DNA from: a virus
Taxonomy: Duplodnaviria > Heunggongvirae > Uroviricota > Caudoviricetes
Reading direction: 5' to 3' (one strand)
DNA: 11,959 nt
IMG/VR virus record: IMGVR_UViG_648276647_000018
Positions 1 to 11,959 of the stretch are shown piece after piece. Numbering within the stretch: position 1 is the first letter of the stretch; each line of letters begins with the position of its first letter. The position numbers were made by a program, and so were the translations under genes. The notes under the pieces were generated by a model. That model saw nothing but the letters and a program-made list of their open reading frames with translations, made no database searches and had not been told where the DNA came from.

Positions 1-1212
1 GTGGCAAGAACGACACGCCCCCTGACCAACACAGAAGTTCTGCGCGCTAAAGCGTTAGAAAAGGATCTAACGTTACATGATGGCGATGGCCTTTTTCTGC
101 TCGTTAAAACGAACAGTAAGAAGTTGTGGCGTTTCCGTTATCAACGTCCAGCAACAAAACAGCGGACAATGATGGGGCTTGGTGCTTTCCCCGCCCTTTC
201 ACTTGCTGATGCTCGACGGTTAAGAGCGGATTACCTTGCTTTGTTGGCTAATGGTATAGACCCACAAGTTCAAGCTGAATTTATCGAAGAACAACAACAG
301 ATAGCTCTAGACAGTATTTTTTCGACTGTTGCGACCAACTGGTTCCAGATAAAAAGCAAAAGCGTTACCCCTGATTACGCTAAAGATATATGGCGCTCAC
401 TGGAAAAAGACGTATTCCCTGCCATCGGGGAGATTCCTGTCCAGCAAATAAAAGCCCGAACACTAGTTGAAGCCCTTGAGCCAATCAAAGCTCGTGGAGC
501 ACTCGAGACAGTGCGCCGACTTGTACAGCGCATTAACGAGATAATGATTTATGCCGTAAACACTGGTCTGATTGATGCCAATCCAGCATCAGGTGTTGGG
601 ATGGCCTTTGAAAAGCCCAGAAAACAAAACATGCCGACGCTGAGGCCAGAAGAATTACCAAAGCTGATGCGTTCTTTGTTCATGTCAAATCTGTCTGTTC
701 CGACTCGCTGTCTCATTGAATGGCAGCTTCTGACTCTAGTGCGTCCTGCTGAAGCTTCCGGTGCTCGATGGGCAGAGATCGATCTCGATGCAAAGCTCTG
801 GATGATTCCAGCCGAACGGATGAAGGCCAAACGAGAGCACATAGTTCCTTTATCCACGCAGGCATTAGAAATTCTAGAAGTGATGCAACCTATTAGCGCA
901 CATCGTGAGCATGTTTTCCCAAGCAGAAATGACCCTAAACAACCAATGAATAGCCAGACTGCGAATGCCGCGCTTAAGCGCATTGGTTATGGTGGGAAGC
1001 TTGTTGCTCATGGATTACGTTCTATAGCAAGTACAGCACTAAATGAAGCTGGTTTTAATCCGGACGTAATTGAAGCGGCACTTGCTCACAGTGATAAAAA
1101 TGAAGTTCGAAGAGCATACAATCGTTCAACTTACCTTGAACAACGTATAGACTTGATGAATTGGTGGGGTGAATTTGTGCACAACCGCCACCGCCTCATG
1201 CAAGCGATTTAA
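1..1212 (+). CDS. int: P4-type tyrosine integrase. The N-terminus is at or just beyond the window edge (GTG at position 1).
   Basis: The ORF is 403 aa. The N-terminal region (LTNTEV..., DGDGLFLLVKTNSKKLWRFRYQRP) is typical of P4/CP4-57-like integrases. The C-terminus carries HGLRS, LAHS and RRAYNRSTY, the catalytic R-H-R-Y signature of tyrosine recombinases. Confidence 0.9.
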   Translation: MARTTRPLTNTEVLRAKALEKDLTLHDGDGLFLLVKTNSKKLWRFRYQRPATKQRTMMGLGAFPALSLADARRLRADYLALLANGIDPQVQAEFIEEQQQIALDSIFSTVATNWFQIKSKSVTPDYAKDIWRSLEKDVFPAIGEIPVQQIKARTLVEALEPIKARGALETVRRLVQRINEIMIYAVNTGLIDANPASGVGMAFEKPRKQNMPTLRPEELPKLMRSLFMSNLSVPTRCLIEWQLLTLVRPAEASGARWAEIDLDAKLWMIPAERMKAKREHIVPLSTQALEILEVMQPISAHREHVFPSRNDPKQPMNSQTANAALKRIGYGGKLVAHGLRSIASTALNEAGFNPDVIEAALAHSDKNEVRRAYNRSTYLEQRIDLMNWWGEFVHNRHRLMQAI

Positions 1213-1239
1213 TAAGATTGCACAGCAAAGGAGTCTTAA

Positions 1240-2598
1240 ATGCCAAATAACTACCATCAATACATCGAAGACGTTAGTGATGATATAAAGACATGTCTTG
1301 AAGGAATGGGATGCCAACCCATACTTTTTGTTGGATCGGGATTAACCAAGAGATATCTTTCTGGCCCAAACTGGGAAGAACTTCTTCAGCAACTTGCTAA
1401 TGAATGTCCTAACATCGATAAAAGATTTGCCTATTATAAACAGAAATACCCCGAGTTGATTGATATCGGCAGTGTATTTTCTGATTCTTATAACGAGTGG
1501 GCATGGGGTGATGGAGAGAAAGAATTTCCAGCAGAGTTATTTGATGCAGGCAATGAGCCAAGTATTTATTTTAAATACAAAGTATCTAGTATTTTCAACT
1601 CATTGTTACAAGAAAAAGAAATCGTAAACAACGGTGAAATTGAACTTCTGAGAAAGATTCACCCTCATTCAATCATCACAACAAATTACGACAAATTACT
1701 TGAATCGATATATCCTGAGTTTACCCCCATTATAGGCCAAAAAATCCTTTACGCTAATCACGGTAGCATTGGTGAAATACTTAAAATACATGGTTGCTGC
1801 TCCACTCCTGAAAGCATAATAATAAACCGCGATGACTACGATGACTTCATAAAGAAGAAGAAATATTTAAGCGCAAAACTGCTTACTTTCTTTGCTGAAC
1901 ACCCTCTTCTATTTATAGGTTACAGCGCAGAAGACTCGAACATAAAAAACATACTATCTGATATTGATGAACTACTTTCAGAAAATGGAGATGTCATTCC
2001 AAATATATACATTTTAGAATGGACGAGCAAACAAAATGAAAGTGAATACCCACGCCGTGAACGGCTGATTCAAGTATCTGCAAACAAAAGCATTAGAATA
2101 AAAAGTATAGTAGCAAATGACTTCTCTTGGGTATTTTCAGCGTTTGGCGCGAACAGAGCACTTGATAACATAAATCCCAAATTATTGAGGGCACTTTTAG
2201 CTCGCACTTACGATCTCGTCAGAACTGATATACCTCGCAATCCTGTCCAAGTTGATTACCGAGTTTTATCAAGCATTAGCGAGTCAGAAGGTGAATTAGC
2301 GAAATTATATGGTATCGCCACATCGTCAGATGGTATGGCATTTAATGCCAGTTATCCTTTTACTTTAACCACGCTAGGGCAATCACTTGGTTTCAAAGGC
2401 TGGCATGATGCGAACAAACTATTAGAAGTAGTTAAAAACATCACGAACGTAGACATCAAGACATTCGATAACAAATACCACTATGCAATAATGAACGGTG
2501 ATGAGATTCAGTCCCATAGATATTCAAACTATCTTCGAGAACTCCTCGAAAAGGTTAGGGATGGAGAGGAGTTTGAGTTAGGAATAAAGGCTCCATAA
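1240..2598 (+). CDS. SIR2-like (sirtuin-fold, SIR2_2-type) protein, 452 aa, with a C-terminal domain of unknown function; candidate single-gene anti-phage effector.
   Basis: Strong SD (AAGGAG) 6 nt upstream of the ATG. Motifs: PILFVGSGLTKRYL (Rossmann Gly-rich loop, aa 27-40), IITTNYDKLLE (putative catalytic Asn149, codon 1684-1686), ILKIHGC (putative catalytic His184, codon 1789-1791) and LLFIGYSAEDSNI. The gene is clearly more AT-rich than the GC-rich P4 backbone. It lies between int and cos. Confidence 0.85.
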   Translation: MPNNYHQYIEDVSDDIKTCLEGMGCQPILFVGSGLTKRYLSGPNWEELLQQLANECPNIDKRFAYYKQKYPELIDIGSVFSDSYNEWAWGDGEKEFPAELFDAGNEPSIYFKYKVSSIFNSLLQEKEIVNNGEIELLRKIHPHSIITTNYDKLLESIYPEFTPIIGQKILYANHGSIGEILKIHGCCSTPESIIINRDDYDDFIKKKKYLSAKLLTFFAEHPLLFIGYSAEDSNIKNILSDIDELLSENGDVIPNIYILEWTSKQNESEYPRRERLIQVSANKSIRIKSIVANDFSWVFSAFGANRALDNINPKLLRALLARTYDLVRTDIPRNPVQVDYRVLSSISESEGELAKLYGIATSSDGMAFNASYPFTLTTLGQSLGFKGWHDANKLLEVVKNITNVDIKTFDNKYHYAIMNGDEIQSHRYSNYLRELLEKVRDGEEFELGIKAP

Positions 2599-2626
2599 TT
2601 ATTCATATAGCCTTACTACTTTTTAT

Positions 2627-2650
2627 GGCCGCTTTAATAGCGGCTTTTTC
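2627..2650 (+). terminator. Rho-independent terminator downstream of the SIR2-like gene.
   Basis: Stem ggccgct (2627-2633), loop ttaat, stem agcggc (2639-2644), then TTTTT (2645-2649). Confidence 0.5.
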
Positions 2651-2785
2651 ACAGCATTATTCATGCTTCTAGCACGATATGATGAACCGCAATAATCATA
2701 GCTAACAGGATTAATTTAAAGCATTACTCCTCGACTGAAGCGTGCTGTCATGCGAAAAAAATTTAAACTACCACGTTAGCGCGCA

Positions 2786-2804
2786 GTGCTTTCCCCGCCT
2801 CGCC
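2786..2804. other. cos site: 19-nt P2/P4 cohesive-end sequence.
   Basis: gtgctttccccgcctcgcc is the exact reverse complement of the P2/P4 cohesive end GGCGAGGCGGGGAAAGCAC as I recall it. Confidence 0.7.
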
Positions 2805-2906
2805 CGCACGCTTTGCGGGGCGGTTTTAATGCAGTTGCACTGACACGCTCAGACCGCGCCGGGAATGGCGCGGTCTGCAGAAAATGAGGCAGGGAAACGC
2901 ATGCAA

Positions 2907-2939
2907 AGCCATGCACCTTATCGATGCATGGCTTTTTTC
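2907..2939. terminator. Hairpin with T-run between cos and the psu stop; possible terminator, strand uncertain.
   Basis: Stem agccatgca (2907-2915) and tgcatggct (2925-2933), followed by TTTTTT (2934-2939) on the plus strand. A second inverted repeat gaccgcgcc/ggcgcggtc lies at 2852-2875. Confidence 0.4.
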
Positions 2940-2968
2940 AGTAAAAACAGGCGGATTTTCGGGAAATT

Positions 2969-3541
2969 TTACACAGACTGACGTGATGCCAGTTGCGCAC
3001 TTTTACGCGAAAAAATCATGTTCTGCGCAGGGGTGAATTTTTCACGGCTGTCGTCCACCGAAGCCGCGTCAGGCCTGAATCCGATGGTCGTTAAAATGTC
3101 GCTATCCTGTGCGGAATAATTAATTTTTTCCCCCTTCGCAAGCCAGGACAGAAGGGCTTCACGCAGGGCATCTGTGGCACGCTGTATGGCACAGTTTCGG
3201 GCAATGGCCGTCAGCTCACTGTAGCCCATCAGCTCCGGTGCCAGTGCCGCCGCCAGTGCTGTGCCGTGCTGCTGCATAAAATCATTCAGCCGGTCGCGGA
3301 TGCTGATGTGCTGAACGGCTTCATGCGAACGAATATAACGACCGGCGGCCTGATTCACCTGCCATTTTCTGACTTCGATAATATTGCGTAATTCGTCCAG
3401 GCGACTGACGTTTCTGCCTTCTCCTGACAGAAGCCGCAGGTATTCCTGTTCGGCCGCTGCCAGCTCATTTTTGCGTTGCAGCCATGCTGCTTTGTTATTC
3501 TGACAGGTGTCAAAGGCCTGCTGTAAGGCTGTGCTTTCCAT
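2969..3541 (-). CDS. psu: Psu, polarity suppression / capsid decoration protein.
   Basis: 190 aa. The translation MESTALQQAFDTCQNNKAAWLQRKNELAAAEQEYLRLL... matches P4 Psu in sequence and length as I recall it. It is the last gene of the sid-delta-psu operon, read toward cos. Confidence 0.9.
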   Translation of the reverse strand: MESTALQQAFDTCQNNKAAWLQRKNELAAAEQEYLRLLSGEGRNVSRLDELRNIIEVRKWQVNQAAGRYIRSHEAVQHISIRDRLNDFMQQHGTALAAALAPELMGYSELTAIARNCAIQRATDALREALLSWLAKGEKINYSAQDSDILTTIGFRPDAASVDDSREKFTPAQNMIFSRKSAQLASRQSV

Positions 3542-3614
3542 CGTTATCTCTTTCTCATCATGCTGAAGAATAAAAATACGGTGTGTGGCGACGGCCGGTG
3601 TTAACCGGCAGCCC

Positions 3615-4115
3615 TCATTCCAGACGCAGCGAATATGATTGTGTTTTTAACCGTACTGGCGGCAGTTCCTGTTTTTCATGCAGGCGTTCTGCCAGTTCGT
3701 CCGGCGTGACCGGGCGGACAATGAAGCGGGTGATGGTCTGAAGCGTTTTAAACACCAGACCACAGCCCGGATCCGTGCACACATAAAAACGCTCGGTGAC
3801 TTCCTGAGACAGACCCCGCGATGTTCTTGACAGCGCAAGGCCTTTACATCTCCGACAACAATATCCGGTAACAAGCATTCTTTTCGGGCGCTTCATGCTG
3901 CCGGAGGCTGACGTCAGTGAATCGCGGTATCTCTGTTTGCCTGAAATGTATTCCATTCCTGAATCTTTACAGTCAGAGAAAAAGCTTTCACTCGCTTCAA
4001 ATGTCGCAGAGCAATAAATATTCCGGCACTGTGCAATCATTATCTTGGTGCCATCGTCCATGAAATGTGCGCGACGGGTGTGAGCAACATGTCCACACGA
4101 CGGGCAGTAAATCAT
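3615..4115 (-). CDS. delta: Delta, Ogr/Delta-family zinc-finger late-gene transactivator.
   Basis: 166 aa starting at MIYCPSCGHVAHTRRAHFMDDGTKIMIAQCRNIYCSATFEASESFF, with a second Ogr-like module (YVCTDPGCGLVFKT). The start is the ATG at 4113-4115 with an AGGA SD. The longer 185-aa ORF in the track is an in-frame upstream extension. Confidence 0.85.
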   Translation of the reverse strand: MIYCPSCGHVAHTRRAHFMDDGTKIMIAQCRNIYCSATFEASESFFSDCKDSGMEYISGKQRYRDSLTSASGSMKRPKRMLVTGYCCRRCKGLALSRTSRGLSQEVTERFYVCTDPGCGLVFKTLQTITRFIVRPVTPDELAERLHEKQELPPVRLKTQSYSLRLE

Positions 4116-4846
4116 GACAGCAGTCCTCTGGCCTTCAGCTCTGCTCCCTGCTGGTCTATTTTGTCCTGCCACACCTTGCGCTGTGCCGGTGTGCCTGCCA
4201 CCTCATAATCCATGTGCGGGAGTGTTGCCGCTGACAGTCCGGTCAGCCGGAGAACCGGCTCGCCGGTGAGGCTGATTTGCATCTGTTTAATTTTCTGTTC
4301 CAGCGATGATTTCACCTGCTGCATGACAGCCTTTTCCGGTGCGACGTAGCCCTGATGGCCGGTGGTGTTGGCGAGCGGATTTTCCTGTACCAGAATGCTC
4401 AGATGCATTGCCCGGACAAGCGCCTCACAGGTTTCATTCAGGGCGTGTTCCAGCTCATGCTCTGCATACAGACTCAGAAGGTGATGATGTGCCTTCCGGT
4501 AGGCGGTGGCCGTGCTGTCACACGCCCCTTTCAGGCGTTCACGTTCGAAATTCAGCACCACGGCCAGATTGTCATATTCCTGTACCAGCTCCCGGCGTGC
4601 CACGCGCTCAATGTGGCGCTGTTTCAGCTCGTCGCTCAGGACACCACCGGCTGCACGAAAGGCCGTGCGCCAGTCGTCAGCGTCATTTCCGTCGGCCTGC
4701 GTCAGCGCATTTTTTTCCTGCTCTGCCCGTTCAATGGCCGTGACGGTCTCATCCATCAGGCGGGCGTTCTCAAGATGAGCGGCTCTGGCCTTTTCCAGTT
4801 GTGCCAGTGCGGGTTGCAGATATTCAGGGATGGTGTTGTCAGACAT
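4112..4846 (-). CDS. sid: Sid, capsid size-determination (external scaffold) protein.
   Basis: 244 aa starting at MSDNTIPEYLQPALAQLEKARAAHLENARL with a GAGGAG SD upstream. The stop at 4112-4114 overlaps the delta ATG (ATGA overlap). The 266-aa ORF in the track is an upstream extension. Confidence 0.85.
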   Translation of the reverse strand: MSDNTIPEYLQPALAQLEKARAAHLENARLMDETVTAIERAEQEKNALTQADGNDADDWRTAFRAAGGVLSDELKQRHIERVARRELVQEYDNLAVVLNFERERLKGACDSTATAYRKAHHHLLSLYAEHELEHALNETCEALVRAMHLSILVQENPLANTTGHQGYVAPEKAVMQQVKSSLEQKIKQMQISLTGEPVLRLTGLSAATLPHMDYEVAGTPAQRKVWQDKIDQQGAELKARGLLS

Positions 4847-4918
4847 TTTCCGGCTCCTCGTCACTTCAGGTTGAGAAAATTGTGACGTACACCGGACAGC
4901 AACACGACGCATTGCAGA

Positions 4919-4936
4919 TGTGCCAGCCCTGACACA
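4919..4936 (-). promoter_or_regulatory. Putative Delta/Ogr activator site (TGT-N12-ACA) of the late promoter Psid.
   Basis: tgtgccagccctgacaca is centred about 82 nt upstream of the sid ATG. A second TGT-N12-ACA lies at 4881-4898. Delta/Ogr/Cox-activated P2/P4 late promoters carry this dyad near -55. Confidence 0.4.
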
Positions 4937-5015
4937 GGAGACTCATCCTCAGACCGGCAAGCCAGGAAAAGGTCGCAGGAAAAACCGGCTTACTGTTTGT
5001 TTTTTTATATTTTAC

Positions 5016-5120
5016 TGTTCACCTCTGTTCACCATAAGAAAAAAGATAAGTAATACAGTAAGTTAAAGGGTGAACAATCGCAGTAATGACTGTTCACCGT
5101 CTGTTCACCACTGTTCACCC
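5016..5120. repeat. Replication origin (ori): six copies of the type I iteron TGTTCACC.
   Basis: Direct copies at 5016-5023, 5026-5033, 5091-5098, 5103-5110 and 5113-5120, plus one inverted copy (ggtgaaca) at 5069-5076. The region is AT-rich. It lies about 4.8 kb from crr, as in P4. Confidence 0.7.
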
Positions 5121-5169
5121 GTTGATGGGCTTTTTGTGCTGTTTATTACTTTTTATTTTTATTAATTCA

Positions 5170-5215
5170 CTGAAATAAATAAGAAAAAACAATTTGTATT
5201 TCACTATAATTTTTT
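5170..5215 (+). promoter_or_regulatory. Possible constitutive early promoter (PLE-like) for the vis-to-alpha operon.
   Basis: Perfect TATAAT at 5205-5210 in an AT-rich tract. I could not pick out a good -35 at 17-bp spacing. Confidence 0.25.
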
Positions 5216-5397
5216 CCAGCTCCTTCCAGAGCGTTTTAAAGCTATCTGGCGCTGATGTACAAAAAATGCACAGCCATTGTAAGGCTGCCGGAACAAATCC
5301 CCCCTGTTGCGTCTGCTGAAAATATTCACAAAATAAAGCGCTACCCGAAGCCGGACGGACTTATCCGGTGCTGTATGGACATTAACGAGGTAGCCCG

Positions 5398-5664
5398 ATG
5401 CAAGCTGTTTTTTCTTCCCCGTCTCCCGCCCCTGTTACGCCACTGATGCCGCTGCCGGACATCACGCAGGAGCGTTTTTTACGTCTGCCGGAAGTGATGC
5501 ACCTGTGCGGCCTGTCACGCTCGACCATCTATGAACTCATCCGTAAGGGGGAATTTCCGCCGCAGGTGAGTCTTGGCGGTAAAAATGTGGCCTGGCTGCA
5601 CTCTGAAGTCACCGCATGGATGGCCGGGCGCATTGCCGGACGCAAACGGGGGTACGACGCATGA
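5398..5664 (+). CDS. vis: AlpA/Vis-family helix-turn-helix regulator (excision and late-gene control).
   Basis: 88 aa with a GAGG SD 7 nt upstream. The core [48 protein letters not shown] is the classic AlpA/Vis HTH. Confidence 0.8.
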
Positions 5665-5756
5665 TGATGCCCGCTCTGCAAAAAGTCCCTTTTTCTGGCT
5701 TGCCTTTTTCCGGCATTTGCGGATATAGTTTTTCCGCTGCCGCAAAATCGGCAGCC

Positions 5757-6047
5757 GGGCGTAGGAACCCGTGTAACTCGAAGGCGACATATGACGCGCC
5801 ATGCGTCTTTTTTTGTGTCGCAATCAACGCCACAGAGCGCCAGATTATGGTGTGGCGTGTGGTTTGCCGTGCAGGTATGATCCTGTTCGCAATCGCATGT
5901 TATGCCACTGAGTCAATGGTAGCTCAGGCGGGGCAGCCTCCGGGCTGGCCGGTATTCTTCGAGGCCGGTATTCCTACCCCCGTCTGGGCTATCGCCATCG
6001 AGCGTAGGAACTCCGGCGATAGCAGTTATTTGCTACTCGAAGGAGAC
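5757..6047 (+). promoter_or_regulatory. CI-RNA-type immunity region: seqA-like and seqC-like direct repeats flanking a complementary seqB-like element.
   Basis: gcgtaggaac...ctcgaagg occurs at 5759-5784 and again at 6002-6043. Between them, cttcgag (5957-5963) and ttcctac (5971-5977) are the antiparallel complements of both halves. A 9-bp inverted repeat gctatcgcc/ggcgatagc lies at 5978-6023. Confidence 0.45.
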
Positions 6048-6053
6048 TGCCTT

Positions 6054-6251
6054 ATGGCTACAACCCTTACCCCTTCACACCCTGAATTTGTCTTTGTGTT
6101 TGCGGCTGTCCGTCGCGCAGACCGTCATCCCCGTATCTGCATGCTTCGCACCGTCGCCGGTGATGAACGCAGCGCCCGCCGTTCCCTTGTCCGTGACTAT
6201 GTGCTCTCCCTTGCTGCCCGTCTGCCGGTGGTGGAGGTGTCCCGTGCGTAA
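6054..6251 (+). CDS. Hypothetical small early protein (65 aa).
   Basis: ATG with an AGGAGA SD 7 nt upstream. It is the 3' part of the long 5616-6251 reading frame, whose upstream portion overlaps vis and the immunity repeats and is probably non-coding. Confidence 0.45.
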
Positions 6252-6531
6252 TAAAAAAGCCCCTCAGACCGTCTCAGCACGTCATGACGCCCGTGAACAC
6301 CTCAGCATTGAGGCTTACCATAAGCTCAACCGCGCCAGCGCCGTATCCCAGTTTGTTGGGGGTGATTTGATTCACCGTGAACTCTCCGGCCTGCATCAGC
6401 TCTACATTCCGCATATTTTCAGCTACCTGAATGAAGATATTGATTTTGTGCTGAATGAGCTGAAAGCCAAAGGCCTGTGCCGCGATTTTCTCGCCCAGCA
6501 GAAAGACCGGGGAGACAGGACGCATGTTTGA
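6244..6531 (+). CDS. Hypothetical early protein (95 aa, GTG start); possibly epsilon-like by size and position.
   Basis: GTG preceded by GGAGGT at 5-nt spacing. The start overlaps the stop of the preceding ORF by 8 nt. The epsilon attribution is from uncertain memory of the P4 map. Confidence 0.5.
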
Positions 6532-6979
6532 TTTTCCCCAGCCCGGTGAGATTTACCGTTCTGCCGGTTTTCCCGATGTGGCCGTGGTCGGCATTCTGGA
6601 AGACGGTATTCCGTGGGAAATGCCGTACCGCTGCCCGGACATTGTCTGGAATCCGTACCGCCGTAAATTCAGTATCCTTGTGCGTATCCTCGCTGACGGG
6701 CGCACCACAGACATCCCGCTGGGGCGTTTTCTGCGGGAATTTACCTGTGACCGTCCTGACCTGTTCAGACGCAGCCCCGTAAACCGGCATGCGGTACTGA
6801 AAGAAATGGCCGGAGACCCGGAATTACAGAAATGGCGGGAGAAATATCTGGATATTTACCCGCAGGACCCTGTTCCGGTCAGCCGGGCGGCACCGGTGGC
6901 GCGGGAATGGCGGGAAATTCCCCGCACGGAGCCTGACCCGGAAATCACCCCGGATAACAGTTACCGCAATTATCTGTAA
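6524..6979 (+). CDS. Hypothetical protein (151 aa); size and position fit P4 orf151.
   Basis: The ATG overlaps the upstream stop (ATGTTTGA). Coding-like composition, same strand as alpha. Confidence 0.7.
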   Translation: MFDFPQPGEIYRSAGFPDVAVVGILEDGIPWEMPYRCPDIVWNPYRRKFSILVRILADGRTTDIPLGRFLREFTCDRPDLFRRSPVNRHAVLKEMAGDPELQKWREKYLDIYPQDPVPVSRAAPVAREWREIPRTEPDPEITPDNSYRNYL

Positions 6980-7114
6980 TTAAAAAACGACACCCGAAAA
7001 ATTAAATGTGCGTATTCGCGCAGGGATACGCACGTCTTCAGGAGACGCAGATATGCCTTATCAGTTAATGCAACCGGCACGGAATGCAGTCATCTGTCAC
7101 AGGGAGGAAAGCAA

Positions 7115-7435
7115 ATGACCCCCCCCTTACCGCCCGTCTTACGCGCAGCCCTTTACCGTCGCGCTGTCGCCTGTGCCTGGCTGACCGTGTGCGAACGTCA
7201 GCACCGCTACCCGCATCTCACCCTTGAATCACTGGAGGCTGCCATCGCCGCTGAGCTGGAAGGCTTTTATCTGCGCCAGCACGGTGAGGAAAAAGGGCGT
7301 CAGATAGCCTGTGCCCTGCTGGAAGATTTAATGGAATCCGGCCCCCTGAAGGCCGCGCCGTCGCTGTCCTTTCTCGGGCTGGTTGTGATGGATGAACTCT
7401 GTGCCCGTCACATAAAAGCGCCGGTACTGCACTGA
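7115..7435 (+). CDS. Hypothetical protein (106 aa) immediately upstream of alpha.
   Basis: GGGAGGAA SD 5 nt upstream of the ATG. It ends 14 nt before the alpha start. Confidence 0.7.
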
Positions 7436-7449
7436 AGGAGAACAACACC

Positions 7450-9783
7450 ATGAAAATGAACGTAACCGCCACCGTCAGCCATGCGCTCGGCCACTGGCCG
7501 CGTATTCTCCCGGCGCTGGGGATTCAGGTGCTGAAAAACCGTCATCAGCCCTGTCCGGTCTGTGGCGGGAGTGACCGCTTCCGTTTTGATGACAGGGAGG
7601 GGCGCGGCACCTGGTACTGCAATCAGTGTGGTGCCGGTGACGGCCTGAAACTGGTTGAAAAGGTGTTTGGTGTTTCCCCGTCCGATGCGGCCGCAAAGGT
7701 GGCTGCCGTGACCGGCAGCCTGCCCCCGGCTGACCCGGCAGTGACGGCTGCCGCCGGTGCTGAAACAGACGCTGCCCGGAAGAACGCCGCCGCACTGGCA
7801 CAAACCCTGATGGCGAAAACCCGTCCCGGAACCGGTAACGCCTACCTGACCCGCAAGGGCTTTCCCGGCCGGGAATGCCGGATGCTGACCGGCACACACA
7901 GAGCCGGTGGCGTGAGCTGGCGCGCCGGTGACCTTGTGGTGCCACTGTATGACGACAGCGGCGAACTGGTTAACCTTCAGTTAATCAGTGCTGACGGCCG
8001 TAAGCGCACCCTGAAAGGCGGACAGGTCAGGGGCACCTGTCACACCCTTGAAGGACAGAATCAGGCAGGAAAACGTCTGTGGATAGCGGAGGGATACGCG
8101 ACCGCACTTACCGTGCATCACCTGACCGGTGAAACGGTGATGGTGGCGCTTTCTTCCGTGAACCTCCTTTCTCTGGCCAGCCTTGCCCGACAGAAGTATC
8201 CGGCCTGTCAGATTGTCCTTGCCGCAGACCGTGACCTCAGCGGTGACGGCCAGACAAAAGCCGCCGCAGCCGCAGATGCGTGTGAGGGCGTTGTTGCCCT
8301 GCCGCCGGTCTTCGGTGACTGGAATGATGCCTTCACGCAGTACGGCGGGGAGGCCACCCGTAAGGCCATTTACGATGCCATCCGGCCACCGGCTGAAAGC
8401 CCGTTCGACACCATGAGCGAAGCGGAGTTTTCCGCCATGAGTACCAGCGAAAAGGCCATGCGTATCTATGAGCATTACGGCGAGGCGCTCGCGGTCGATG
8501 CCAACGGCCAGCTTCTGTCCCGTTATGAAAATGGTGTCTGGAAGGTGCTGCCACCACAGGACTTTGCCCGGGATGTGGCCGGGCTGTTTCAGCGTCTGCG
8601 CGCGCCGTTCTCCTCCGGGAAGGTGGCCTCCGTGGTGGACACCCTGAAGCTGATTATTCCGCAGCAGGAAGCCCCCTCCCGCCGCCTGATTGGCTTTCGT
8701 AACGGCGTGCTCGACACGCAGAACGGCACGTTCCACCCGCACAGTCCGTCACACTGGATGCGTACCCTGTGCGATGTGGATTTCACCCCGCCGGTGGAAG
8801 GGGAAACGCTGGAAACCCACGCCCCCGCGTTCTGGCGCTGGCTTGACCGTGCCGCCGGTGGCCGTGCGGAAAAACGCGACGTGATTCTGGCCGCACTGTT
8901 TATGGTGCTGGCAAACCGCTACGACTGGCAGCTCTTTCTGGAGGTGACCGGTCCCGGCGGCAGCGGCAAAAGTATCATGGCCGAAATAGCCACCCTGCTG
9001 GCCGGGGAGGATAACGCCACGTCGGCCACCATCGAGACGCTGGAATCCCCGCGTGAACGTGCCGCGTTAACTGGCTTCTCACTGATACGCCTGCCGGACC
9101 AGGAAAAATGGAGCGGCGACGGTGCCGGACTCAAGGCCATCACCGGCGGCGACGCGGTGTCCGTTGACCCGAAATACCGGGATGCGTACTCCACGCATAT
9201 CCCGGCGGTGATTCTGGCCGTGAACAATAACCCGATGCGCTTCACCGACCGCAGCGGCGGCGTGTCACGCCGGCGGGTGATTATTCACTTCCCGGAACAG
9301 ATAGCCCCGCAGGAGCGCGACCCGCAGCTTAAGGACAAAATCACCCGCGAGCTGGCGGTCATCGTGCGTCACCTGATGCAGAAGTTCAGCGACCCGATGC
9401 TCGCCCGGTCACTGCTTCAGTCCCAGCAGAACTCAGACGAGGCACTGAACATCAAACGGGATGCCGACCCGACGTTTGATTTTATCGGCTATCTGGAAAC
9501 CCTGCCGCAGACCAGCGGCATGTATATGGGGAACGCCAGTATCATCCCGCGTAATTACCGTAAATACCTCTATCACGCCTATCTGGCCTACATGGAGGCA
9601 AACGGCTACCGGAATGTACTCAGTCTGAAAATGTTCGGGCTGGGGCTGCCGGTGATGCTGAAGGAATACGGACTGAATTACGAGAAGCGCCATACCAAAC
9701 AGGGGATACAGACCAACCTGACGCTGAAAGAGGAAAGCTACGGCGACTGGCTGCCAAAATGTGACGACCCTGCAACAACCTGA
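7450..9783 (+). CDS. alpha: Alpha: bifunctional DNA primase / helicase with C-terminal iteron-binding domain.
   Basis: 777 aa with an AAGGAGA SD. N-terminal zinc ribbon (CPVCGGSDRFRFDD...WYCNQCG). TOPRIM-like motifs (IAEGYATALTV, LAADRD). Walker A GPGGSGKS (nt 8951-8974). The length matches P4 alpha. Confidence 0.95.
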   Translation: MKMNVTATVSHALGHWPRILPALGIQVLKNRHQPCPVCGGSDRFRFDDREGRGTWYCNQCGAGDGLKLVEKVFGVSPSDAAAKVAAVTGSLPPADPAVTAAAGAETDAARKNAAALAQTLMAKTRPGTGNAYLTRKGFPGRECRMLTGTHRAGGVSWRAGDLVVPLYDDSGELVNLQLISADGRKRTLKGGQVRGTCHTLEGQNQAGKRLWIAEGYATALTVHHLTGETVMVALSSVNLLSLASLARQKYPACQIVLAADRDLSGDGQTKAAAAADACEGVVALPPVFGDWNDAFTQYGGEATRKAIYDAIRPPAESPFDTMSEAEFSAMSTSEKAMRIYEHYGEALAVDANGQLLSRYENGVWKVLPPQDFARDVAGLFQRLRAPFSSGKVASVVDTLKLIIPQQEAPSRRLIGFRNGVLDTQNGTFHPHSPSHWMRTLCDVDFTPPVEGETLETHAPAFWRWLDRAAGGRAEKRDVILAALFMVLANRYDWQLFLEVTGPGGSGKSIMAEIATLLAGEDNATSATIETLESPRERAALTGFSLIRLPDQEKWSGDGAGLKAITGGDAVSVDPKYRDAYSTHIPAVILAVNNNPMRFTDRSGGVSRRRVIIHFPEQIAPQERDPQLKDKITRELAVIVRHLMQKFSDPMLARSLLQSQQNSDEALNIKRDADPTFDFIGYLETLPQTSGMYMGNASIIPRNYRKYLYHAYLAYMEANGYRNVLSLKMFGLGLPVMLKEYGLNYEKRHTKQGIQTNLTLKEESYGDWLPKCDDPATT

Positions 9784-9799
9784 CCATCATGACTCATCT

Positions 9800-9825
9800 G
9801 ACCGGCATCTGCCGGTCTTTTTTTA
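9800..9825 (+). terminator. Rho-independent terminator after alpha.
   Basis: Stem gaccggc (9800-9806), loop atct, stem gccggtc (9811-9817), then TTTTTTT. Confidence 0.55.
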
Positions 9826-9840
9826 TCCCTGAATTCCCCG

Positions 9841-10140
9841 AAGGTGAACAATCCACTGTTCACCCTTCACCGTATATTCACCCGTTATCACACTGAAATT
9901 AAAAGAGAAAAATGAAAGGTGAACAGTGTGAACAATCAAATCAAAAAAACTTTTTTTCTTCCGGTGTGATTTCAGCACGGGAAATTAATCCCCTGCACAA
10001 GTCACACCGGCAGAATGCCGGAGGTGAAGAATCGAATGTTCACCCTTCACCCATTATTCACCATCTATCACTCTGAAATAAAAGGAGAAAACAGAAAGGT
10101 GAACAGTGTGAACAGTTCTTTCGAAAAAAATTTTTTTTCC
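9841..10140. repeat. crr (cis replication region): two direct repeats of about 120 bp at a 180-bp period, each with TGTTCACC-type iterons.
   Basis: Repeat 1 (9841-9960) and repeat 2 (10021-10140) align almost base for base, with a 60-bp spacer between them. Each holds ggtgaaca / tgttcacc copies and ends in an A/T run. Confidence 0.75.
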
Positions 10141-10203
10141 TGTACGATATAGCATCAATCCAAGTAAAAATGCGCTTTCATTTCACATTAACTTCCAGCC
10201 ATT

Positions 10204-10296
10204 GGTATACGATTAGGTATACGCACAAAAAATGAATTAAACAAAATCATTAAAAATCAAAGCAATACAATATTTATTCAAACTCCGCCAGCCCAC
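10204..10296 (+). other. Candidate right attachment site (attR): tandem ggtatacg arm-type repeats followed by a degenerate copy of the ssrA (tmRNA) 3' end.
   Basis: ggtatacg occurs at 10204-10211 and 10217-10224. ttcaaactccgccagcccacca (about 10275-10296) resembles the ssrA 3' end (ttcaactcccgccagctccacca, from memory) with three indels. The left repeat is not in the window, so this cannot be confirmed. Confidence 0.3.
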
Positions 10297-10428
10297 CAAA
10301 TAATGATTGGACGGTGTAAGGACTACACCAACAAAAACAGGAAGTTATAAGTCTCAGCAGGACACCGACCAGACGGTGAGGAGACAAAAAAGGATACGCA
10401 ACGGAGTCGCGACTCCCTATGACATTAA

Positions 10429-10452
10429 AGCCCGCTGATGCGGGCTTTTTTA
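10429..10452 (+). terminator. Rho-independent terminator in the flank upstream of csiD.
   Basis: Stem aagcccgc, loop tgat, stem gcgggctt, then TTTTTT. A perfect palindrome ggagtcgcgactcc sits just upstream at 10403-10416. Confidence 0.5.
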
Positions 10453-10882
10453 TTGGTCCTGACCCGCCCTGAATAGAATTCATCCAATTACAGCCCAGAC
10501 ATATACAGTATCCCTCAGCTCAGTATCAGCTTCTCGACAAATGGTCACTGTTATTTACCCGTTGCCAGAAAGAGAATAATTTGCCCCCATAGCCAGCCTT
10601 CCCGGAATCTGTATATTCATTAATATTGTTATCGATTCCATCAAGTAACATAGGTTGGATGCGATTGATCTTACTCACATTAGTCGACACGGAACTCAGT
10701 AAGTCGAACTCTGGAAAAGCAGTTTAAATAGCATTTAAACAAATGCCACCAGTTCGAAAAAGAGTATAAGCACACTTAATATATTGTTTTAATTATTCAT
10801 TTCCTTTCAACCCAATTCTTATCCCTCACATTACTTGTTATTGATTTGTTGTTTTTGATCACAATAAGAAAACAATATGTAA

Positions 10883-11959
<1,077 letters not shown>

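Follow-up and report, generated by a model that had tools for sequence, protein, structure and literature searches.

A very probable right attachment site of an ssrA-integrated P4-type satellite prophage, with predicted loss of T357 from ssrA upon excision

Where an integrated satellite prophage ends on its right side, and what its departure would leave in the chromosome, are the questions raised by the DNA preceding glaH (csiD) in the window, as the whole stretch of 11,959 nucleotides analyzed here is called. The element concerned is a P4-type satellite prophage of about 10.3 kb, located in the 3' end of ssrA directly upstream of glaH/csiD, with the order int, SIR2_2 gene, Psu, Ogr/Delta, AlpA-family gene, Ash, Derepression-family gene, DUF5375, primase-helicase, crr and attR. 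The P4 gene set of the window was recognized by the Pfam domains Psu, Ogr_Delta, Derepression, Phage_AlpA and DUF5375 and by those of the primase, in addition to int, and epsilon-like and ORF106 homologues were also found among the P4-like genes. The ORF in the sid position (4112–4912) gave no match in Pfam; its counterpart in related genomes is annotated as sid. The parts of the element that matter for its ends are the following.

1–1212, plus strand: tyrosine integrase gene of the P4 type, ssrA-specific, forming the left end of the element (Pfam Arm-DNA-bind_3, Phage_int_M and Phage_integrase).
1240–2598, plus strand: gene for a SIR2_2-domain protein of 452 aa, between int and psu (Pfam).
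5398–5664, plus strand: gene for an AlpA-family helix-turn-helix protein (Pfam Phage_AlpA, E = 7e-21; positional counterpart of P4 ORF88).
7450–9783, plus strand: gene for the P4 alpha primase-helicase, the last before crr and attR (99% identity to P4 alpha over 776 aa; Pfam domains).
9800–9817: terminator-like hairpin after the primase gene (terminator scan).
9838–10137, plus strand: crr-like replication region, bounding the P arm on the left (repeat analysis; size and spacing of P4 crr).

The Arm-DNA-bind_3 domain of the integrase was detected with E = 5e-22, and the protein was found to be 63% identical to IntA of CP4-57 from E. coli K-12 and 35% identical to P4 Int. On sequence grounds, the element is a P4 backbone in which the integration module has been exchanged for an ssrA-specific one. 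The AlpA-like protein (5398–5664) is likely to act as the directionality factor, since its positional counterpart, P4 ORF88, is annotated in the P4 record as an 'excisionase and transcriptional regulator'. The crr-like region consists of two 120-nt direct repeats (9838–9957 and 10018–10137) that are 82% identical, are spaced by 180 nt and contain TGTTCACC/GGTGAACA iterons and inverted iteron pairs. In relatives of the element, the slot between int and psu was occupied by HamA with a DEAD/DEAH helicase, by a restriction endonuclease, by an AAA ATPase or by a DUF2326 protein; it is probably a variable slot for anti-phage cargo.

To the right of crr, the original prediction had recognized tandem repeats and an ssrA-like core as a tentative attR, and both components were found to be present. 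Positions 10202–10298 read as arm-type repeats, an AT-rich spacer and an ssrA-like core, and the order over 10200–10300 is cattGGTATACGattaGGTATACGcac, an AT-rich stretch, TTCAAACTCCGCCAGCCCACCA and then aataatgattggacgg. The site and the DNA that follows it are divided as listed here.

10202–10225, plus strand: arm-type repeats of the P arm, putatively integrase-binding (the only two exact copies of GGTATACG in the window; the P4 counterpart is annotated).
10226–10276, plus strand: AT-rich spacer leading from the arm repeats to the core (direct reading; length, AT-richness and a TGAATT motif kept in related attRs).
10277–10298, plus strand: attR core, a copy of the last 23 nt of ssrA minus T357 (alignment, shuffles and comparison of the attB, attL and attR junctions).
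10277–10284, plus strand: TTCAAACT, the element-side T-loop variant (junction comparison).
10285–10292, plus strand: CCGCCAGC, identical in attL, attR and attB and holding the putative crossover (junction comparison).
10293–10298, plus strand: CCACCA, corresponding to ssrA 358–363 and probably belonging to the chromosome side (junction comparison).
10299–10981, plus strand: native DNA (B' side), comprising the ssrA 3' trailer and the ssrA-glaH intergenic region (colinear with island-free ZH063 and SK0832).
10427–10454, plus strand: native rho-independent terminator of ssrA, a hairpin with a T-run, now orphaned (terminator scan; about 130 nt after CCA in empty-site strains).
10982–11959, plus strand: glaH (csiD), the nearest chromosomal gene on the right side of the insertion (Pfam CsiD, E = 7e-151; RefSeq annotation in matching genomes).

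An exact pattern search of the 11,959 bases returned GGTATACG exactly twice, at 10204–10211 and 10216–10223, and the tandem units TTGGTATACGAT and TAGGTATACGCA, with a period of 12 nt, span 10202–10225. The spacer that follows is AT-rich and about 51–53 nt long; in related attRs its sequence has otherwise diverged outside the TGAATT motif, and it is a candidate binding region for bending or accessory proteins. A gapped alignment of the 22-mer TTCAAACTCCGCCAGCCCACCA at 10277–10298 with the last 23 nt of E. coli ssrA, TTCAACTCCCGCCAGCTCCACCA, required three single-base indels and no substitutions. Its local score of 30 was equaled in none of 300 Markov-shuffled windows (20.5 ± 2.1, maximum 28), and the second-best place in the window scored 23. 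The displaced ssrA 3' fragment lies in direct orientation at the int-distal end of the island, on the same strand as int. An ungapped search of the window for the ssrA end, allowing up to three mismatches, found no match because the differences in the core are indels, and Rfam (in E-value mode) and ARAGORN called no tmRNA or tRNA at the site because the ssrA fragment is too short. An ORF of 69 aa on the minus strand (10274–10483), running across the core and the native trailer, had no Pfam match and is almost certainly not a gene. The prediction of an ssrA 3' end terminating in CCACCA was upheld by the alignment, with its end moved from 10296 to 10298, where the CCA stops.

The right side of the core was defined by comparison with the empty site. 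In the island-free strain ZH063, ssrA reads ...GCTCCACCA|AATAATGATTGG..., ending ...CCCGCCAGCTCCACCA and continuing directly into AATAATGATTGGACGG..., with glaH 683 nt further on, and window 10281–11959 aligned with this locus at 99.05% identity over 1,681 nt. The direct junction of ssrA with the native trailer was present in about 2,643 of 5,426 complete E. coli genomes. Since the DNA from 10299 onward is colinear with island-free strains, it is shown by this comparison to be native chromosome, and the insertion has displaced the native trailer about 10.3 kb from ssrA. In the window, CCA is directly followed by the base with which the native ssrA trailer starts in island-free strains, and in this sequence comparison it is the position of the core against that trailer, rather than the alignment score, that is decisive for its identity. 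The placement of the element at the ssrA-csiD locus was thereby borne out, the trailer beginning at 10299 and being followed by glaH/csiD.

The left end was studied in relatives, as the window starts at the start codon of int and attL lies outside it, as had been recognized from the start. The element of strain 2022H047 is 99.5% identical to window 1–10295, and in it a complete ssrA lies upstream of int, with 184 nt separating its end from the same start codon as in the window. This is the flank that the original prediction had called for; the same distance of 184 nt between ssrA and int was measured in EC67 and in strain 4/4. The interval between ssrA and int in 2022H047 contains a replacement terminator followed by TTGGTATACGTTTAGGTATACG-GTAGGAT-GTATACCTAAACGCGTATACCAA, which amounts to four copies of the arm repeat, two direct and two inverted (the P' arm of attL). 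The element thus brings its own replacement ssrA terminator in the P' arm, outside the window. On the right side of 2022H047, identity to the window ends at 10295 and is followed by the P' arm of a second, CP4-57-like island. Because the identity stops there in a different right-hand context, the mobile unit, as read from these sequences, ends at the core. In the same strain (L004, 12760–15259), the satellite is followed by this CP4-57-like island, whose int is split by IS100.

Between ssrA and glaH, EC67 and strain 4/4 have elements of the same family that differ in cargo, and strain E47 has a 98%-identical copy as the second member of a tandem array, behind an ssrA fragment. Tandem arrays are common at ssrA. 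In another of them (L005, 2060–2300 and 12740–14840), an island carrying a dCTP-deaminase gene lies ahead of the satellite, and its junction retains the ssrA 3' end perfectly over 45 nt; a third integrase and IS1 lie beyond the satellite. The breadth of the family was scanned with one genome per species, which gave 79 loci with integrases 71–99% identical, from many genera of Enterobacterales. A complete tmRNA gene lay at most 600 nt upstream of int in 65 of these 79 relatives, and a further 11 were found behind an ssrA 3' fragment, that is, at a tandem-array junction. The repeats of the P' arm are conserved among these loci; at 23 of them, every copy reads GGTACACG rather than GGTATACG, and the variant was concordant between the two ends in all ten scorable elements, five of each type. 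Concerted change at both ends is expected of arm-type sites read by the N-terminal domain of the integrase, and the repeats are accordingly considered putative arm-type sites, two in the P arm and four in the P' arm. The attL regions showed a different kind of variation, in which the first 10–50 nt after the CCA of ssrA occur in several unrelated versions (CTTGCTCTTCCGG, AATCATGATCCGG, CATTATGTACCGG, AAATTCTCCATCGG and others) joined to a conserved block of terminator and arm repeats; some versions resemble the native trailer AATAATGATTGG, and the arrangement is a mosaic.

The layout of the site was compared with that of P4 (NC_001609), where alpha is followed by a terminator, crr (two repeats of 120 bp), two tandem 12-nt 'attP arm sequence repeats', an AT-rich gap of 53 nt, the core, further arm repeats (two direct and one inverted) and int. 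The same order and spacing result when window 9800–10298 is joined to the attL of 2022H047. The likeness extends to the core, which in both is a copy of the target gene's 3' end, to alpha (99% identical) and to crr, which has the same size, spacing and place. The differences are an integrase that is only 35% identical, the arm repeat (GGTATACG here, GGGGGCA in P4), the target (ssrA here, the tRNA-Leu gene leuX for P4), the splitting of the present site as attR, and a SIR2-family gene next to int in place of P4 cII/gop/beta. The empty site, the left ends of the relatives and the P4 attP layout are in agreement, and window 10202–10298 is very probably the attR of an ssrA-integrated P4-type satellite whose excision is predicted to produce ssrA deltaT357.

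The position of strand exchange determines which side of the site carries the missing base. The attB and attL junction reads TTCAA-CTCCCGCCAGCTCCACCA, and the attR junction in the window reads TTCAAACTCC-GCCAGC-CCACCA. The blocks common to attB, attL and attR are CCGCCAGC (10285–10292) and the 6-bp CCACCA (10293–10298), and window 10286–10298 is CGCCAGCCCACCA, i.e., CGCCAGC-CCACCA without T357. Upon excision of CP4-57, only deltaT357 was reported to be transferred, and not the T-loop differences (PMC10107115), which places the exchange between these differences and T357, within CCGCCAGC. In junctions of unrelated elements, similarity to ssrA starts only at (C)GCCAGC, which narrows the exchange to about CGCCAGC. 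By sequence comparison and by analogy with experiments on an integrase that is only 63% identical, strand exchange would occur in CGCCAGC (10286–10292), a typical 7-bp overlap. A crossover in the T-loop was also considered and rejected, as T-loop indels were present in every attR, including that of the T-containing strain 4/4, and are not in the published CP4-57 excision product.

In the proposed sequence of events, the element would have entered the 3' end of ssrA through the action of the tyrosine integrase, and glaH/csiD would be its neighbor on the right. The T-loop differences, to the left of the crossover, would travel with the element, and CCACCA without T357, to its right, would stay with the chromosome. 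Because the T357-less CCACCA stays chromosomal, excision driven by Int and the AlpA-like protein would restore an ssrA lacking U357, the U of the G3.U wobble pair. The resulting ssrA deltaT357 is predicted to encode an inactive tmRNA, by analogy with CP4-57 (63% integrase identity, identical core). The predicted products are an attP of the form ...TTCAAACTCCGCCAGC T CCACCA CTTGCTCTTCC... and an attB in which ssrA minus T357 is joined to AATAATGATTGG. The core had been described as degenerate, and it does differ from the exact ssrA end; the differences are not random decay, being made up of T-loop changes borne by the element and of a known deletion of T357.

Free forms of the site were searched for in several collections. 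With a contiguous attP assembled from the P arm of the window and the P' arm of 2022H047, phage and plasmid collections gave only partial matches to the P' arm and ssrA. Exact attP junction patterns, with or without T357, found none for this element in IMG/VR or in metagenome contigs, and a pattern for a T-loop crossover matched only an unrelated 39-kb phage with an ssrA-type attP of its own. In the 39-kb viral contig IMG/VR UViG_3300014607_000013 (L006, 6860–7080), an intact ssrA-type attP is arranged as an AT-rich arm, TTCAACTCCCGCCACCTCCACCA, a terminator, repeats and int.

A competing account accepts the same attR and moves the exchange into the terminal CCACCA (10293–10298). The element would then bear the whole of the degenerate stretch, missing T included, as a core-type integrase site, and excision would restore ssrA. 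This account draws on CCACCA being a 6-bp block common to attL, attR and attB, and on the string ACTCCGCCAGC-CCACCA, which E. coli, Mixta, Enterobacter and Morganella have in identical form. The T357-less core was also found at internal tandem-array junctions in several genera, beside the P' arm of another element, which is simplest if the string moves with the element. However, CP4-57, which has the same core, leaves a chromosomal ssrA deltaT357 (PMC10107115), as CP4So does (PMC5148205), and both cases assign the missing T to the chromosome side. Attachment sites with and without T on identical P arms, and deltaT357 in one natural empty site, that of SK0832, also argue against exchange in CCACCA, and the account is considered improbable.

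The base beside the putative crossover shows a clean polymorphism in nature. T357 is present in the attR of strain 4/4 (L087, 13100–13120) and of five other genomes with the same satellite family, and four genomes (H192–H195) have an otherwise identical region of 221 nt without it. Since T and T-less attRs share this identical background of 221 nt, the T357 allele is, as far as these sequences tell, tied to neither flank. A linkage of T/deltaT to a SNP in the P arm seemed real in five examples and was discarded when four genomes were found to combine the P arm of the 4/4 type with deltaT. The island-free strain SK0832 (NZ_AP046542.1; L089, 899–1260) has ssrA minus T357 followed by the same trailer (129 of 129 bases), with ssrA annotated at 362 nt. 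It was the only match to the predicted scar among the 5,426 complete E. coli genomes. The strain may be a natural excisant whose tmRNA gene is dead; otherwise, the missing T is an assembly error.

Larger deletions were found at the same position. A loss of four bases (GCCAGC----CCA, deltaTCCA) was observed at the right ends in 2022H047 (L004, 12740–12760) and in an Enterobacteriaceae MAG (L051), and the form CCCCAGC----CCA was also present in a Y. pestis locus (L066). Table 1 of PMC10107115 gives CGCCAGC-CCACCA for CP4-57 and CCCCAGC----CCA for Y. pestis. All the deletions observed or published start at T357, which suggests a mechanistic or selective cause and not random decay. It is conceivable, though rather unlikely, that these deletions arise when the integrase cleaves at the right edge of CGCCAGC, or that they are a selected 'retention scar', as opposed to neutral decay. 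If this were true, the scar would make loss of the satellite cost the host its tmRNA, and would thereby stabilize P4-like satellites with defence cargo at ssrA; retention of the satellite would be coupled to ribosome rescue, and an incoming ssrA-targeting element with a good 3' end would be strongly favored once the scar was present.

The block could also be viewed as a fossil, namely the decayed attR of an older ssrA island related to CP4-57, which the satellite merely abuts and which it cannot use. The imperfect match of the core to the ssrA end, and the frequency of tandem arrays and IS-disrupted integrases at the ssrA locus, would be in keeping with such a history. Against it, the arm repeats match those upstream of the element's own int and not those of CP4-57, the spacing of arm, spacer and core is as in P4, more than 100 E. 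coli genomes share the conserved block, and a T357-less core is excision-proficient in CP4-57 (PMC10107115). A fossil origin is thus very improbable. Chance resemblance of AT-rich intergenic DNA to a tmRNA 3' end, for which a match of only 22 nt with three indels and the silence of Rfam and ARAGORN might speak, can be dismissed, as none of the 300 shuffles reached the score, no base separates the match from the native ssrA trailer, and the element boundary falls at the same place in another genomic context (2022H047).

The reading preferred here, an attR that carries the T357 deletion, has its closest parallel in CP4-57, the cryptic prophage of E. coli K-12 with IntA and AlpA (Kirby 1994, Wang 2009, Onodera 2022). 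Its attR shares with the window the ssrA 3' end as target and the core TTCAGACTCCGCCAGC-CCACCA without T357, and its trailer and terminator are homologous to those of the window (89% identity over 175 nt). The integrases belong to the same subfamily (63% identity), and an AlpA-family gene is present. The CP4-57-type arm repeats occupy the same positions and are different in sequence (GGCCCA/GGACCA in K-12, TAGGCACC in relatives), and CP4-57 is a decayed island of about 22 kb from which the P4 genes for replication and hijacking are absent. In K-12, its attR is followed by ypjA, whereas that of the window is followed by glaH; the analogy with K-12, which had been drawn for a matching order of ssrA, integrase and csiD, is thus only approximate. 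Excision and tmRNA inactivation were demonstrated for CP4-57 and are predicted for the element of the window. Excision of CP4-57 yields ssrA deltaT357, in which the U of the G3.U wobble pair is gone, trans-translation is inactive and rescue proceeds via ArfA/RF2 (Onodera et al. 2022, PMC10107115). Similarly, CP4So of Shewanella oneidensis is an ssrA island with a P4-type integrase and an attR without the same U; its sequenced excisants carry a one-base deletion (Zeng 2016, PMC5148205), and cold induces its excision by way of H-NS and AlpA (PMC5148205). CP4So differs from the present element in being a 36-kb mosaic island from a distant genus without the P4 satellite gene set. In tDNA islands (Williams 2002, 2003; Islander, PMC4383910), int lies beside the regenerated target and the displaced 3' fragment lies at the far end; the displaced fragment is present in the window and the regenerated target in relatives of the element, which is, without material difference, a standard instance of that arrangement.

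The site is therefore an ordinary case of classes already described, namely the P4 attP architecture, the ssrA islands and the CP4-57-type attR with deltaT357. Its identification fixes the right boundary of a P4-like satellite with a SIR2-family gene and helps to delimit the mobile unit and its cargo. The natural T and deltaT alleles on an identical E. coli background constitute a ready-made test system. Loss of the satellite is predicted to inactivate tmRNA, which would extend the published prophage switch to widespread, active-looking satellites.
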